DNA from: Escherichia virus TH58
Sequence record: MT446423.1
Length of the DNA stretch: 64,000 nucleotides
Direction: 5' to 3' (one strand)
Numbering within the stretch: the first letter of the stretch is position 1; each line of letters starts with the position of its first letter. Shown in pieces: positions 11,199-56,806 of this stretch. Under the pieces are notes generated by a model that was given only the letters and a program-made list of their open reading frames with translations, had not been told where the DNA came from and searched no databases. The position numbers and the translations under genes were made by a program.

Positions 11199-11426
11199 AT
11201 GAAACGTCAAATCATTAAAAATGTAACTACTGATTCAAACATCGATGAGTTTGAAGATGTTCTGTTTAATCCTGATTTAGTTGTTGTACAGAAAAACTGG
11301 ACCGAATTTTTATGCTACACCGAAGTGGTTTACGTTTACGAAAAACTCGGTGATGAAATGCCTATCTACGGTATCTTCCGTGAAATCACTGAAAACGGTA
11401 CAACTTATTGGAAGGAAACTTACTAA
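11199..11426 (+). CDS. hypothetical small protein
   Basis: ATG 11199 after GAGGAG RBS, downstream of early promoter. Confidence 0.45.
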
Positions 11427-11836
11427 TGGCTAATAAATTCCGCGTTAACTCATGGTACCAATTTATAGATAAACGTGCCCAAGAAGAGTTTATTAAAGAC
11501 CACACTGATAATGGGATTTATGCACGACGTCTTGGCATGGAACCATTTAAAGTATTAGATGTTGACCATCTTGGTCGTCCTACTAAAATTGTGACATCTA
11601 CTGGCATGGTTGGATATGCAACAGGCGGTGATATCCTTGATGAAAACTTTATCTGGCTCTCCACGAATGAAGCAGAGTTCTTTGAAGAAGTTGGAAATCC
11701 ATATCAAGCGTCTGAAGAGCAAGATTCTGGTGAACTTGACGAATTGTCTGAATTTCCTGTGATGACGATTACTATCGAAAATAATGACCAGGCATGGTCT
11801 TTGTATCAAATGTTGAAAGCACATTTTAAGGAATAA
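11426..11836 (+). CDS. hypothetical acidic protein
   Basis: ATG 11426 with GGAAGGA RBS. Confidence 0.5.
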
Positions 11837-12020: not shown

Positions 12021-12446
12021 ATGGCTTTTAAAGGTTTTGAAGTTGGTAAGAAATATCGTATTATCAAAGGACAGGAAGATAATTTCTTGAGACTTCTTAA
12101 TACGACTGGTAAACGTCTTAATACTAATCTGCATACTACTTTATTGTCCAAAGATTTTATTGTGGAAAAGATGATTGGTTACGGTGTTTCTGTGATTGCT
12201 GTAGAAGCCGTAGGCGATTATGGCCGAACTATTCATAGTATGCAAGGTGATATTCTGCTTTATGGTGCAGAATTTAAATTCTTTGAAGAAGTTCCGGAAC
12301 CAGATACAGCTGTCGATTTCAAAAAAGGCTCTGTAGAATTTGTTGATGGTTCGGTGATCGTATCAGGTGATGTGGTCATTACAGTTAAAAGTGAACAAGG
12401 GCGTTTGGCTGCAATTGATGCACTTCAGAAAATTAAATTTAAATAA
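12021..12446 (+). CDS. hypothetical protein
   Basis: 141 aa ORF followed by hairpin terminator. Confidence 0.5.
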   Translation: MAFKGFEVGKKYRIIKGQEDNFLRLLNTTGKRLNTNLHTTLLSKDFIVEKMIGYGVSVIAVEAVGDYGRTIHSMQGDILLYGAEFKFFEEVPEPDTAVDFKKGSVEFVDGSVIVSGDVVITVKSEQGRLAAIDALQKIKFK

Positions 12447-31034: not shown

Positions 31035-31059
31035 CAAAAATGGGAGACCGAAGTCTCCC
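31035..31059 (-). terminator. rho-independent terminator after gene 35
   Basis: GGGAGAC-TTCG-GTCTCCC hairpin followed by T5 on minus strand. Confidence 0.55.
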
Positions 31060-39413: not shown

Positions 39414-39442
39414 GTTTACTTCTTCCCTGGATGTGTTAGTAT
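39414..39442 (+). promoter_or_regulatory. T4-type early promoter
   Basis: GTTTAC, 17-nt spacer, TAGTAT. Confidence 0.5.
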
Positions 39443-39905: not shown

Positions 39906-39940
39906 AGCCCTATCAAATCAAAAGTGAAGCGGAGAATAAA

Positions 39941-40189
39941 ATGAGATTGCAACGCCAGAGCATCAAAGATTCTGAAGTTAGAGGTAAATGGTACTTCAAC
40001 ATCGTCGGTAAAGACGCTGAACTCCTTGAACAAGCTGAAGAAGCTTTACGCGAAATGGGTTGGAACGAAGAATGTGACAGATGTCCACTCTACGAAGATG
40101 GTGAAAGTGCAGGATTCTGGATTTATCATTCTGACGTCGATCAGTTTAAAGCTGATTGGAAAGTTGTTAAGAAAAATCTGAGGAAATAA
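39941..40189 (+). CDS. hypothetical protein
   Basis: 82 aa after promoter-like element. Confidence 0.45.
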   Translation: MRLQRQSIKDSEVRGKWYFNIVGKDAELLEQAEEALREMGWNEECDRCPLYEDGESAGFWIYHSDVDQFKADWKVVKKNLRK

Positions 40190-54313: not shown

Positions 54314-54318
54314 TTTTA

Positions 54319-54341
54319 GGGAGACCGAAGTCTCCCTTTTG
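54319..54341 (+). terminator. rho-independent terminator after small basic ORF
   Basis: GGGAGAC-CGAA-GTCTCCC hairpin plus TTTT. Confidence 0.65.
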
Positions 54342-54373
54342 TGCGTTTAGGGCAGAAAAAGTTTAAAAAAGAT

Positions 54374-54402
54374 GTTTACTCTCCTGTAGGATGTGTTACT
54401 AT
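54374..54402 (+). promoter_or_regulatory. T4-type early promoter
   Basis: GTTTAC, 17-nt spacer, TACTAT, TAGACTTGTACC box. Confidence 0.5.
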
Positions 54403-54443
54403 AGACTTGTACCACCTAATCAATAAAACAATCGGAGAATAAA

Positions 54444-54812
54444 ATGAAAATCAATCTGAACTCATACATCAAATGTAAAGACCACGATGGTTATAAAGCT
54501 ATCGAAATTAAAGAATTCCAGTGGATGTTATACAAAGAGCAATTTGAGTTCGTAGGTTGTATGACACCTGAAGGTCCTTCAGATGATTTCTCTTGGAAAA
54601 TTGTGTTAGCAAACTTTTTCACAGGTGACACATACGAATTAAAAACTATTATTACCGGTAAAATTCGTTCAGAAACATATGTTGACGAAGAAACTGGTTA
54701 CTCTGAAGATGTTACATGGTATCAAAATGGACGCATTACAGCAGATAACCTGATCGAAAAAATGAAAGCCAAAGGTGTTTTAAATTTAGACAATTGGATT
54801 AAAGTTGCATAA
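54444..54812 (+). CDS. hypothetical protein
   Basis: 122 aa; own early promoter cassette; GGAGAA RBS. Confidence 0.5.
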   Translation: MKINLNSYIKCKDHDGYKAIEIKEFQWMLYKEQFEFVGCMTPEGPSDDFSWKIVLANFFTGDTYELKTIITGKIRSETYVDEETGYSEDVTWYQNGRITADNLIEKMKAKGVLNLDNWIKVA

Positions 54813-54816
54813 AACA

Positions 54817-54845
54817 GTTTACTTTGGTACAGGTTATGTTATTAT
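54817..54845 (+). promoter_or_regulatory. T4-type early promoter inside inverted repeat (PeSL-like)
   Basis: GTTTAC, TATTAT; 10-bp arms TTGGTACAGG/CCTGTACCAA flank -10. Confidence 0.55.
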
Positions 54846-54886
54846 AGACCTGTACCAACAAACAACTTAAACATCTGGAGAATAAA

Positions 54887-55252
54887 ATGAACTACACCAA
54901 CTTCGAACGTAAATATGTTTCTAACGGTATCGCTGGTTCTATTGATACGATTTGTTTATGGAAACATAAAAATGGTTCAGTATGTGAAATTGAGCAGTAT
55001 ATGACTCCTAATTACGTTTATATGCGATTTGAAAATGGCATCACGGTTTCAGTCACAATGGAAGGTTCCAACTTCAAAATTGCATTAGATGACGATTTCC
55101 GTCAACGTGATTTAGGTACTCATCCTTGCTGGAACGGTGTTAATCGTAAACTTCTGGTTAAAACTTGGATTCGTCATATCCTGAGTAACCGAGCTAAACC
55201 TGAACATCTCGAAGCAATCTTTGATGTAGTTCTTAACGAATTCGATATCTAA
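54887..55252 (+). CDS. hypothetical protein
   Basis: 121 aa; own early promoter cassette. Confidence 0.5.
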   Translation: MNYTNFERKYVSNGIAGSIDTICLWKHKNGSVCEIEQYMTPNYVYMRFENGITVSVTMEGSNFKIALDDDFRQRDLGTHPCWNGVNRKLLVKTWIRHILSNRAKPEHLEAIFDVVLNEFDI

Positions 55253-55287
55253 TTTAACTGGGAGCCGAAGCTCCCAGTGAGGAAATT

Positions 55288-55902
55288 ATGTTTAAAGTTA
55301 ATACTTTTTATAAAATGAATTTTAAAAATGGGGATATTACTCCACGCCTTAAAAACATGTTCTCATATGACCTTATTGAGCCTTTTGAAGTTTTAGAAGT
55401 TACTGATGCCGGCTCGGTTTGTGAAATTAGAACTTCTGAAGGTAAAATTTATCAGGCAGGTGTTGGTAAATTTAGTAATTGTTTTACTTTAATATTCTCG
55501 ACCGATTTAGATGAGCATTTTATTGAATGTCCTAACCCTAAGGTCTACGAAGTTCCACATCAAGAAACTAAGAAAAACGGCCCGCACGAATATACGAAGG
55601 TTGAAACTCCTCACGGCGTGATGTGGCGTCATAACTCTCCTTTTGGAAGTAAAGGAACATTTGCTCAACCATCTAAACCGTATGACGATGAAAAATACAT
55701 CGTCGTCTTTTTATCTGAACAGGGTACTCAAGACCGTGGATGCCAACGAAGTGGTTTACTAAGTGAACTTGAAGCTCATAACCAAGCACGTGAATTCGTT
55801 GAGAAAAATCCTGGTTCTGAAGCTCTAGTCATGAAAGCAATTACTCAATATATCACTGCTCAACCTGTTGTTCATCCGGTAGAAATTAATTTCGTTAAGT
55901 AG
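55288..55902 (+). CDS. hypothetical protein
   Basis: 204 aa. Confidence 0.5.
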   Translation: MFKVNTFYKMNFKNGDITPRLKNMFSYDLIEPFEVLEVTDAGSVCEIRTSEGKIYQAGVGKFSNCFTLIFSTDLDEHFIECPNPKVYEVPHQETKKNGPHEYTKVETPHGVMWRHNSPFGSKGTFAQPSKPYDDEKYIVVFLSEQGTQDRGCQRSGLLSELEAHNQAREFVEKNPGSEALVMKAITQYITAQPVVHPVEINFVK

Positions 55903-55932
55903 TTTACATCCAAGGACGGATTAGAGTATAAT
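55902..55932 (+). promoter_or_regulatory. T4-type early promoter with spacer hairpin
   Basis: GTTTAC, spacer ATCCAAGGACGGAT, TATAAT. Confidence 0.5.
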
Positions 55933-55955
55933 GATTTCTTTAGTAAGTGGAAAAT

Positions 55956-56153
55956 ATGAAATTTTTAATAGCACAAACAGTCCAATTAAAAGGTGTTGGA
56001 ATCCCTGGGATGATTTTTAAAGTTCTCCATGAATTTAAAACCGCTGCTGGAATTATCAATGAAGCGTATGCTGTTCAATGGGTTGATGGGACTTCTGACA
56101 TACGTATGGGTAAAGAGTTATCTCCTATTAAAGGGTTGAAACATGTTGAATAA
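55956..56153 (+). CDS. hypothetical small protein
   Basis: ATG 55956 after early promoter. Confidence 0.4.
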   Translation: MKFLIAQTVQLKGVGIPGMIFKVLHEFKTAAGIINEAYAVQWVDGTSDIRMGKELSPIKGLKHVE

Positions 56154-56355
56154 ATTAATCCAGAAATTTTTTGGTACGGAAATGATTGAAGTTACGTATC
56201 GTGTGACTGATGTAAGCCCGTGGGCCCGAAAAGTTGAACCATATACTAAAACAATTAAAATGCTGAAATATGACGGTGGATTATCTATCAAAGACCGTCT
56301 ACCGGCTTATGGACATTGGGCTGATGTTGAAATTATAAGTGTTAAAGATGTCTGA
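56143..56355 (+). CDS. hypothetical small protein
   Basis: 70 aa. Confidence 0.4.
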   Translation: MLNKLIQKFFGTEMIEVTYRVTDVSPWARKVEPYTKTIKMLKYDGGLSIKDRLPAYGHWADVEIISVKDV

Positions 56356-56806
56356 GTTAGAGATTAGAAGCAATTTTAGATGGCCGTCATGTGCATTAAG
56401 TAACTTTGCTCAATGGCCTTTTGTTATGGATGGTATTCAATTCGGAGGTCTTGAAGGATTTCTCCAAGGATGTAAGGTGAAAAATGTTGAACAACAAAAA
56501 CGTATATTTGGGTTGTCTGGATTGGCTGCACAGCAAGCTGGAAGGTCTTATGCAAGAGCTCAGGACCGTGGGACTCTCTTCTGGTTAGGAGTTCCATTTT
56601 CAAGATACTCCGAAGCGTGGAAAGAATTATACACAAATGCATATTTTGAAGCCGCGATCCAAAATAAGGGGTTTCGTGATGCCTTACAAGCCTCTAAAGG
56701 AAAAATTTTGAAGCACAGCATGGCCAGCCATCTAACAAAAGATGATACAATATTAACCGAAGCCGAATTTATTGATGTGTTAAACCTATTAAGAGACTCT
56801 TTATGA
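56348..56806 (+). CDS. NADAR (YbiA/DUF1768)-like protein
   Basis: LSNFAQWPF..DG..F...E..LQ..K resembles the NADAR N-terminal signature. Confidence 0.5.
   Translation: MSELEIRSNFRWPSCALSNFAQWPFVMDGIQFGGLEGFLQGCKVKNVEQQKRIFGLSGLAAQQAGRSYARAQDRGTLFWLGVPFSRYSEAWKELYTNAYFEAAIQNKGFRDALQASKGKILKHSMASHLTKDDTILTEAEFIDVLNLLRDSL

Follow-up and report, generated by a model that had tools for sequence, protein, structure and literature searches.

The 30.8-30.7-30.6A region of Escherichia virus TH58: ordinary T4-type early genes exchanged at promoter cassettes

Close to the rIII end of the T4-type early region of Escherichia virus TH58, three consecutive open reading frames raise the question of whether they are unknown accessory genes, each acquired individually together with its own early promoter, as the original prediction proposed from the DNA alone, or familiar genes in a familiar order. 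To answer it, we analyzed the three ORFs within a stretch of 64,000 nucleotides (the window). All three had been delimited exactly right by that prediction, and they are listed with the surrounding signals in Table 1. The stretch belongs to a T4-type phage that is RB69-like (Mosigvirus), and 30.8, 30.7 and 30.6A are ordinary, previously described, non-essential early genes of such a phage, ordinary because the genes are catalogued and their early promoters and RegB shut-off sites were already known. It is likely that the whole locus is explained as the part of the T4-type "30.x" early cluster that lies nearest to rIII, with these three genes. The discovery value is small: mapping work on T4-related phages had located the genes, their promoters, the RegB sites and the hairpin some twenty years ago. 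The check serves to avoid mistaking a T4 early transcription unit of the textbook kind for something new.

Table 1. Features of the 30.8-30.7-30.6A region of TH58 (positions in the window)
Feature	Position	Strand	Remarks
30.9 intrinsic terminator	54318..54345	+	stem GGGAGAC, loop CGAA, U tract; dG -18.3 kcal/mol, z -4.0
P30.8	54374..54402	+	A-rich upstream region, GTTTAC 54374-54379, 17-nt spacer, TGn, TACTAT 54397-54402
30.8 Shine-Dalgarno and RegB/S1 site GGAGAATAAAA	54434..54444	+	exact consensus match
Gene 30.8 (ORF1)	54444..54812	+	122 aa, pI 4.9, hypervariable early protein; Pfam PF06019
P30.7	54817..54845	+	GTTTAC 54817-54822, 17-nt spacer, TGn, TATTAT 54840-54845
11-bp inverted repeat TTGGTACAGGT / ACCTGTACCAA	54824..54858	+	perfect; flanks the P30.7 -10 hexamer
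30.7 Shine-Dalgarno and RegB/S1 site GGAGAATAAAA	54877..54887	+	exact consensus match; unpaired in predicted fold
Gene 30.7 (ORF2)	54887..55252	+	121 aa, highly conserved early protein; Pfam PF06919
Intercistronic hairpin after 30.7	55257..55278	+	dG -16.9 kcal/mol, z -4.9; no U tract
30.6A Shine-Dalgarno GAGGAA	55279..55284	+	lacks GGAG
Gene 30.6A (ORF3)	55288..55902	+	204 aa; N-domain 1 to ~88 GoF-like, C-module ~92-195
Promoter of 30.5	55902..55932	+	(G)TTTACA, 18-nt spacer, TATAAT; 11/12 positions match
Gene 30.5 (context)	55956..56153	+	right boundary of the 30.6A replacement; T4 and SP18 homology restarts at 55956

Identity and distribution of the three genes

The three ORFs had been described as having no recognisable motifs, which proved wrong for two of them. 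The first matched Pfam PF06019 (Phage_30_8) over residues 2-121 of 122 with 149.2 bits (gathering cut-off 25; E 6.7e-44), and the second matched PF06919 (Phage_T4_Gp30_7) over its full length with 178.2 bits (cut-off 27; E 5.2e-53). The third is not nameless, since it shows 98.5% identity across 204 aa with gp30.6A of phage TuIa (CAF21717), a name that dates from 2004-06 (GenBank AJ621579); the TuIa protein is attributed to Truncaite et al. (2006, Virology 344:378). It also matched phrog_17531 (1.4e-146). Remote homology searching had been put forward by the original prediction as its check. Sequence and profile searches of the PDB with all three proteins returned nothing below E 0.1, fold searches returned nothing informative for the proteins of the region, and NCBIfam, PADLOC and Rfam gave no matches for it. 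None of the three ORFs showed homology to characterised housekeeping phage proteins, in keeping with the prediction.

The gene order agrees with these assignments, as 30.8 sits between 30.9 and 30.7, where it is expected in Tevenvirinae. Genomes of relatives already annotate gp30.8, gp30.7, gp30.6A and gp30.5, and the TuIa record AJ621579 carries the promoters, ribosome binding sites and stem-loop as annotations. In T4, the 30.x cluster is expressed early at the RNA and protein level and the entire cluster was scored as non-essential on K-12 by transposon mapping; its 30.8 orthologue gives early RNA and early protein and is non-essential. T4 shares with TH58 the slot of 30.8 and 30.7 between 30.9 and 30.6, the early promoters and the GGAGAAUAAAA leaders, and also the dyad around the P30.7 -10 hexamer and the hairpin after 30.7.

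The two Pfam families differ in conservation. Of the 1,037 phage records in which gp30.8 occurs, 635 fall below 60% identity, and the T4 protein is only 37% identical to that of TH58, the alleles of SP18 (87%), Moon (76%) and RB69 (57%) being closer. The gp30.7 family comprises 998 records with 543 at 95-99% conservation, and T4 gp30.7 is 96% identical. We considered whether gp30.8 and gp30.7 might be remote paralogues and rejected this (hhalign probability 0.1%). The slot after 30.7 holds gp30.6 in 832 phage records and the unrelated gp30.6A in 120, mainly Mosigvirus. T4 gp30.6 matches different PHROGs from gp30.6A, and the reading of gp30.6A as a diverged T4 gp30.6 (phrog_2153) was discarded at a BLASTP E of 1.6.

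Promoters, leaders and hairpins

The early promoters described for T4 combine UP, -35, TGn and -10 elements (PMC2988021), and P30.8 and P30.7 are, judged by their sequence, strong host-sigma70 early promoters of this type. In the window, 21 copies of the pattern GTTTAC-N16-18-TAnnnT stand against an expectation of 3.0 +/- 1.8, sevenfold above chance, with 20 of the 21 on the coding strand. A generic sigma70 scan, by comparison, did not list P30.8 and returned 17 sites in the region versus 14.9 expected, which is no excess; discrimination of early promoters was given by the T4-specific pattern only. P30.7 starts 5 nt past the 30.8 stop codon, and the two promoters are mutual nearest neighbours among 18 early promoters (69% versus a mean of 47%). 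P30.7 is 93% identical to its T4 equivalent and 97% to those of RB69 and SP18. The original prediction had assigned a promoter of its own to every gene, which is correct for 30.8 and 30.7 and incorrect for ORF3, as the third cassette follows ORF3 and serves 30.5. Its GTTTAC element was likewise well chosen, but the first two cassettes have TACTAT and TATTAT as their -10 hexamers, a true TATAAT being present only in the promoter of 30.5. The proposed TAGAC(C/T) box dissolved on inspection into the final T of the -10 followed by A-G-x-C-Y-T-A-T-C, which is generic in TH58 early promoters.

TuIa has no gene 30.8, so that a cassette equivalent to P30.8 drives 30.7 there, with annotated -35/-10 signals. 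The 30.5 promoter, whose -35/-10 signals are also annotated in TuIa, accompanies the 30.6A module. T4 lacks it: there 30.6 and 30.5 overlap at TAATG, and no promoter separates them.

A GGAGAA ribosome binding site had been noted for two of the genes, and GGAGAATAAAATG does precede both 30.8 and 30.7. This site reproduces exactly the RegB/S1 cleavage consensus published as GGAGAAUAAAA (Durand et al. 2006, PMC1702504), in which GGA(G/U) precedes, in single-stranded RNA, 7 nt that are rich in A and free of C. As in the RegB/S1 targets of T4 early mRNAs, the same 11 nt serve as the Shine-Dalgarno sequence, here as read from the sequence, and GGAGAATAAAA at 54434 and 54877 is unpaired in the minimum-free-energy fold. 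The T4 30.7 leader is an experimental RegB substrate that is cut, according to an account (PMC9409239) citing Truncaite et al. (2006), and sites with GGAA are cut very poorly (PMC1702504). If the published T4 rules hold in TH58, 30.8 and 30.7 would be made in an immediate-early burst, after which a RegB cut in GGAG would shut off their translation. By the same rules, 30.6A would be read through from P30.7 and escape RegB, so that its synthesis might last longer. The regB gene lies outside the window.

Three elements of secondary structure accompany these signals. The 30.9 terminator, which doubles as the stem-loop half of a PeSL-like cassette before 30.8, is annotated as a stem_loop in TuIa and as a terminator in phage WFK, and every relative examined has TTCG in its loop. 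The inverted repeat at P30.7 is kept in T4 and folds with a dG of -19.5 kcal/mol (z -3.7; -17.9, z -5.1, in a 42-nt folding window); transcripts reading through from P30.8 would carry it as a hairpin. A dyad around the -10 hexamer is not a universal promoter feature, since no more than 5-6 of the 18 early promoters have a strong one. The third element, predicted as a stem-loop without a T tract after the second ORF, was confirmed, and it recurs in T4, TuIa (annotated there as a stem_loop), RB69, SP18, Moon, a Klebsiella phage and PS49, usually as C(UUCG)G. In both the 30.9 and the 30.7 hairpin, TH58 has a CGAA loop where relatives, TuIa among them, have the stabilising UUCG, so that the behaviour of the two hairpins may differ.

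The strength of its stem, together with the label of putative terminator given to the equivalent hairpin in WFK, would allow the hairpin after 30.7 to be a functional terminator that leaves 30.7 monocistronic and 30.6A silent or expressed from another promoter. However, the U tract is absent, the 30.6A Shine-Dalgarno sequence begins 1 nt past the stem, the hairpin did not appear in the terminator scan, and the region yielded no MotA-box promoter. Moreover, T4 30.6 occupies the equivalent slot behind the same hairpin, has no promoter, and yet its early RNA and protein are made. We regard termination at this hairpin as highly improbable compared with read-through from P30.7 into 30.6A.

Gene exchange at the cassettes

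The prediction that the units were individually acquired held insofar as the region is a gene-by-gene mosaic with breakpoints at the cassettes, and failed insofar as it made 30.8 and 30.7 novelties. Homology to T4 ends at the end of 30.9 and restarts exactly at the P30.7 GTTTAC (54817); it breaks off a second time 7 nt inside ORF3 (55294), to return at the 30.5 ATG. In comparison with RB69, both promoter cassettes are 97% identical, P30.8 included, versus 67% for the intervening 30.8 coding sequence. The 30.8-less junction of TuIa falls in the 15-nt repeat GGAGAATAAAATGAA that is common to both cassettes, and the flanks of TuIa 30.6A match those of TH58, with hairpin and Shine-Dalgarno sequence upstream and the 30.5 promoter downstream. 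On its left, the swappable 30.6/30.6A slot is bounded by the hairpin after 30.7. When the two cassettes of one genome are compared with each other, their identity is 0.76-0.81 in five of eight phages; for the same cassette compared between genera, it is 0.60-0.80 in most comparisons.

This arrangement resembles the promoter-early stem-loop (PeSL) cassettes and the cassette-mediated shuffling described by Arbiol et al. (2010, PMC2839356) and Comeau et al. (2014, PMC4122927). Tandem PeSLs consist of a stem-loop, TTTACW-N17-TAYWAT, a Shine-Dalgarno sequence and an ATG (PMC4122927), flank variable ORFs and mark the breakpoints of indels and replacements, and the same is seen in TH58, where P30.8 follows the 30.9 terminator hairpin, P30.7 carries its dyad, and replacement breakpoints lie at the cassettes. 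There are two differences: the stem-loop of P30.7 surrounds the -10 hexamer, whereas in PeSLs it lies upstream of the promoter, and the 30.7/30.6A junction has the hairpin and Shine-Dalgarno sequence only and is promoterless. On comparison of the genomes, the promoter/Shine-Dalgarno cassettes are near-repeats and behave like the recombination joints of the PeSL model, which accounts for the swaps of 30.8 alleles, for the disappearance of 30.8 from TuIa and for the exchange of 30.6 for 30.6A together with the 30.5 promoter.

The stronger claim, that each promoter-gene unit is a recently and individually acquired foreign accessory gene (a moron), draws on the coincidence of cassettes with breakpoints and on the restriction of 30.6A to 120 records, mostly Mosigvirus, with eight relatives among 1.84 billion representative proteins. 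Mapping of presence and absence, which favours it for 30.6A, goes against it for 30.8 and 30.7: with about 1,000 phage records each, in fixed order across at least eight Tevenvirinae genera, these two genes are ancestral rather than recent acquisitions. ORF3 itself, the sole gene that truly is a cassette alternative, lacks a promoter of its own. In addition, relatives of both 30.6A domains are found solely in Tevenvirinae (GoF and ORFs of SP18 and CkP1), which points to shuffling inside the phage group and not to import from outside. Recent foreign acquisition is therefore an improbable account, and exchange at the cassettes within Tevenvirinae is the reading that we carry forward.

Possible functions of the encoded proteins

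The leads that remain concern unexplained genes of T4-like phages, namely the GoF-like domain of gp30.6A and the confidently modelled orphan fold of gp30.7, which together are what is modestly new here, and a clean natural exchange of genes and domains at repeated promoter cassettes that adjoins the proven counter-defence gene adfN. All three products may be small, soluble, dispensable accessory proteins. The AlphaFold model of gp30.7 is confident and its secondary structure comprises seven beta-strands followed by three helices; fold searches with the model found no structural relatives, and the protein may thus represent an orphan alpha/beta fold. A zinc site was considered and dismissed, as conservation of C23, C33 and C81 does not extend across genera. 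The modelling alignments were shallow because the concatenated gp30.8 and gp30.7 query gave few homologues.

A more specific possibility, compatible with the regulatory reading above and making a stronger functional claim, is that the region is a counter-defence island, each of its three proteins being dedicated to the inhibition of host systems directed against phage (such as toxin-antitoxin or abortive infection), in the manner of the neighbouring gp30.3/AdfN, a proven anti-DarTG1 enzyme of the same cluster (PMC11257639; HIDEN-SEQ). Early expression and dispensability of the cluster on K-12 are consistent with it, and the hypervariability of gp30.8 amid conserved flanks and the alternation of 30.6 and 30.6A would then reflect an arms race; for gp30.8, variability may fit a host-interaction or counter-defence role. 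On the other hand, the conservation of gp30.7 is not an arms-race pattern, none of the three proteins has a homology or fold match to known anti-defence proteins, and the main text of the HIDEN-SEQ study reports no conditional phenotype for 30.6-30.8. We consider dedicated inhibition by all three proteins somewhat doubtful, and return to the reading of them as accessory early proteins.

For gp30.6A, the N-terminal domain is homologous, on sequence comparison, to the LSm-like domain of GoF (BLASTP 31% identity over 95 aa, E 1e-6; hhalign probability 92.5%, E about 5e-7), and the protein matched phrog_622 at 4.5e-5. As in GoF, likewise the product of an early dispensable gene, the N-domain, which spans ~88 residues in gp30.6A, is followed by an unrelated C-terminal domain (PMC12152347; the paper does not mention gp30.6A). 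The GoF/MotB.1/Frd.2 family has the fold of a bent five-stranded antiparallel beta-sheet (LSm/SH3-like); the gp30.6A model, which is poor overall (pLDDT 54), places six beta-strands at residues 7-69 with pLDDT below 50. The C-terminal module is different, rare, and forms its own small family, and GoF residue D25 is not conserved. An effect on RNA level or stability is known only for the D25Y mutant of GoF, wild-type GoF being without demonstrated activity (PMC12152347). The N-terminal domain of gp30.6A may thus be LSm/SH3-like in the manner of GoF, and the most plausible target of the protein would be RNA or a host factor that handles RNA.

A broader proposal, which we think unlikely to hold in full, is that gp30.6A is an unrecognised branch of GoF-type LSm-like proteins, with a small mobile C-module attached to the putative RNA-handling barrel, that the paired promoter/RegB cassettes evolve in concert, and that the 30.x region is a site of gene and domain shuffling; if so, this shuffling would yield new early effectors acting on the RNA metabolism or the defences of the host. 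For 30.6A, exhaustive searching of the 1.84 billion representative proteins gave the eight relatives mentioned and no more. The C-module stands alone in SP18 and CkP1, occurs in other ORFs of the 30.x slot (PS49), and is fused to the gp30.8 N-terminus in an Enterobacter phage.

Gene identities and early promoters

The window derives from a T4-type phage, and its sequence runs the way the early genes are transcribed. Around the locus it shares 95-97% identity with RB69-like (Mosigvirus) phages, e.g., moskry, JS09 and JK42, and is collinear with T4 (cd, 31.1, 31, rIII, 30.9, 30.8, 30.7, the 30.6 slot, 30.5, 30.4, 30.3, 30.2, 30.1, 30). The three ORFs of the original prediction were located correctly, but they are not free of motifs as it had held: ORF1 matches Pfam Phage_30_8 (6.7e-44), ORF2 matches Phage_T4_Gp30_7 (5.2e-53), and ORF3 is gp30.6A. 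An assignment of ORF3 to T4 gp30.6 was rejected, there being no similarity between the two; its counterpart is "gp30.6A" of phage TuIa (GenBank AJ621579), at 98.5% identity. In this 1,418-bp record, which accompanies Truncaite et al. (2006; Virology 344:378), gene 30.6A is annotated along with the -35/-10 signals, the RBSs, the stem-loop that follows 30.7 and a promoter preceding 30.5, and the JS09 and JK42 genome records name the same genes gp30.8, gp30.7, gp30.6A and gp30.5. The locus is a T4-type early transcription unit, correctly seen by the original prediction and already described; our additions are modest, namely a GoF-like domain in gp30.6A, an orphan fold in gp30.7, and signs that domains are shuffled and that the promoter/Shine-Dalgarno cassettes evolve in concert. 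All three proteins are small, soluble and mildly acidic. While gp30.7 is 96% identical to its T4 counterpart, gp30.8 is only 37% identical and is hypervariable (635 records below 60% identity). Some GenBank records (PV204681, MZ868638, MN648445, MN850651) name gp30.8 'glycogen branching enzyme GH-13' or 'glycogen enzyme', gp30.9 'lysis protein' and other cluster genes 'baseplate hub subunit'; since the proteins match only Pfam 30.x families, these labels look like propagated misannotations.

Features of the 30.8-30.5 region (window coordinates)
Feature	Coordinates	Strand	Description
P30.8	-35 54374-54379; -10 54397-54402	+	GTTTAC, 17-nt spacer with TGn, TACTAT (sequence)
ORF1 (30.8)	54444-54812	+	
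P30.7	-35 54817-54822; -10 54840-54845	+	GTTTAC, 17-nt spacer with TGn, TATTAT (sequence)
ORF2 (30.7)	54887-55252	+	
Post-30.7 hairpin	55257-55278		dG -16.9 kcal/mol, z -4.9, no U tract
ORF3 (30.6A)	55288-55902	+	
P30.5 cassette	55902-55932	+	3' of ORF3, serves 30.5; only TATAAT of the three

The T4-specific pattern GTTTAC-N16-18-TAnnnT has 21 matches in the window where 3.0 +/- 1.8 would be expected (20 of the 21 on the coding strand); a generic sigma70 scan gave no discrimination (17 sites vs 14.9 expected). The title of the original prediction credited each gene with its own promoter, and its text gave two of them a TATAAT -10 element; only two of the three have a promoter, neither with that hexamer, and the third cassette belongs to the next gene. 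The claimed "TAGAC(C/T)" box dissolves into the final T of the -10 and, after it, the consensus A-G-x-C-Y-T-A-T-C, which is common to ~18 early promoters of the window. A strong inverted repeat brackets the -10 hexamer in 5-6 of these 18 (z -2 to -5; 19802, 20314, 48694, 50820 and 54817), the others being without one, and may be the stem-loop part of promoter-early stem-loop (PeSL) elements.

Exchange at the cassettes and within genes

Homology to T4 stops at the end of 30.9, returns exactly at the GTTTAC of P30.7, stops again 7 nt into 30.6A and returns at the ATG of 30.5. Compared with RB69, both cassettes are 97% identical and the 30.8 coding sequence 67%; the nearest 30.8 allele comes from a different genus, in phage SP18 (87% identical as protein). 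P30.8 and P30.7 are mutual nearest neighbours among the 18 early promoters (69% vs a mean of 47%) and share an exact 15-nt repeat, GGAGAATAAAATGAA, inside which lies the junction in TuIa, a phage without 30.8. Within single genomes of Moon, a Klebsiella phage, PS49 and RB69 the two cassettes are 0.76-0.81 alike, exceeding most same-cassette comparisons between genera, which suggests that they undergo concerted evolution. Lineage-specific sequence downstream of the -10 is also common to both cassettes of a genome (L006, L007, L009 and RB69), as in TATAGTATAAACTCAATAA of Moon and TACTATAGACCTGTACCACCCAAACAGATA of a Klebsiella phage, suggesting gene conversion between them. The cassette-bounded exchange seen here all agrees with the PeSL model, described for the T4/PST pair with promoter consensus TTTACW-N17-TAYWAT (PMC4122927). 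The idea of individually acquired units holds for the exchange breakpoints and fails for 30.8 and 30.7, which by their distribution (1,037 and 998 of 50,697 phage records, in conserved order) are ancestral genes rather than recent acquisitions. In the slot that follows 30.7, 832 records have gp30.6 and 120 have gp30.6A. Because RB69, with gp30.6, lacks 30.5, and 30.6A-bearing phages have 30.5 with its own promoter (cf. 55902-56153), the exchanged module may be 30.6A plus P30.5, possibly including 30.5.

Residues 1 to ~88 of gp30.6A share homology with the GoF/ComC-alpha N-terminal domain; the GoF orthologue in the window is ORF 11426-11836 (72% identical to T4 GoF; 31% identity to gp30.6A, E 1e-6; profile-profile probability 92.5%, E 4.8e-7). 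An RNA-stabilising effect has been demonstrated for the GoF(D25Y) mutant only, in a paper that makes no mention of 30.x genes (PMC12152347). Homologues of this N-domain occupy the 30.6 slot or the 30.8-30.7 gap in Moon, PS49, PEi26 and a Klebsiella phage. Residues ~92-195 form a rare module, with only 8 matches among 1.84 billion representative proteins, that stands alone in SP18 and CkP1 and also lies within a PS49 ORF. A 153-aa protein of Enterobacter phage vB_VIPECLOM01 (P0021) joins the N-terminal ~62 residues of gp30.8 to such a module, and this indicates that domains, besides whole genes, are shuffled in the 30.x region. The AlphaFold2 model of gp30.6A was poor (pLDDT 54), and weak ClpS-like matches were therefore set aside. 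Separately, the 141-aa ORF 12021-12446 in the 39.1 slot has a weak resemblance to GoF (E 0.022) and may be a further LSm-like family member.

An in-frame fusion between gp30.7 residues 1-78 and the C-terminal half of gp30.3/AdfN also occurs naturally (P0006, an ENA metagenome contig; cluster of 6 members). It joins the window equivalents of ~55120 and ~56600, arose where 30.7', 30.6, 30.5, 30.4 and '30.3 were deleted at an RDLGT/DRGT microhomology, and shows this cluster to be dispensable and deletion-prone in nature.

Predicted RegB sites, hairpins and defence context

Efficient cleavage by T4 RegB/S1 needs the 11-nt GGAGAAUAAAA, and GGAA is cut very poorly (Durand et al., 2006; PMC1702504). 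The Shine-Dalgarno sequences of 30.8 (54434-54444) and 30.7 (54877-54887) are exactly this 11-mer, so the predicted GGAGAA RBS is correct as a Shine-Dalgarno and is, beyond a plain RBS, part of an exact RegB consensus. The consensus recurs just once more in the 64 kb, as GGAGAATAAAA at 39931-39941, where it follows the early promoter at 39414 by ~500 nt. In T4, the 30.7 leader serves as a standard substrate for RegB (PMC9409239). Leaders of the remaining cluster genes contain no GGAG, that of 30.6A reading GAGGAA, and T4 30.4-30.8 are early as RNA and as protein (PMC9697503 supplement). We infer that 30.8 and 30.7 would be expressed in a burst and then translationally inactivated by RegB, and that 30.6A would be expressed by read-through from P30.7 across the hairpin, escaping this inactivation.

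The stem-loop without a T tract claimed after the second ORF is real. A G+C-rich hairpin, its tetraloop mostly C(UUCG)G, separates the 30.7 stop from the following Shine-Dalgarno in T4, TuIa, RB69, SP18, Moon, the Klebsiella phage and PS49 irrespective of the gene that follows, and is therefore a fixed intercistronic element forming the left edge of the variable slot. Since it lacks a U tract and T4 30.6, which has no promoter of its own, is expressed early downstream of the same hairpin, an RNA-stabilising or processing element is more likely than a terminator. In the window the hairpins at 54318-54337 and 55257-55278 both have a CGAA loop; TuIa, RB69 and four close Mosigvirus relatives have its reverse complement, TTCG, at both sites. 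In effect, two loops are inverted inside 1 kb and the stabilising UUCG tetraloop is lost, which may stem from genuine template-switch inversion or from an error of assembly. TTCG is retained in nine further hairpins of the window, and a third CGAA hairpin, also with a GGGAGAC stem, lies at 31042-31059. A terminator-like hairpin with a T tract (55682-55716; ATGACGATG...CATCGTCGT CTTTTTAT, z -2.8) falls in the conserved DDEKYIVVFL region of gp30.6A and could be coincidence or an attenuator of read-through.

Because none of T4 30.1-30.9 is essential on E. coli K-12 (transposon mapping, HIDEN-SEQ supplement) and the neighbouring 30.3 is AdfN, an anti-DarTG1 enzyme (PMC11257639), a counter-defence role of 30.8, 30.7 and 30.6A is plausible; direct support for such a role of the three genes was not found in this analysis. 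AdfN is full length in the window (56348-56806; 96.7% identical to T4), whereas the RB69 allele is truncated by a frameshift and DarTG1-sensitive; the TH58 phage is therefore predicted to resist DarTG1.
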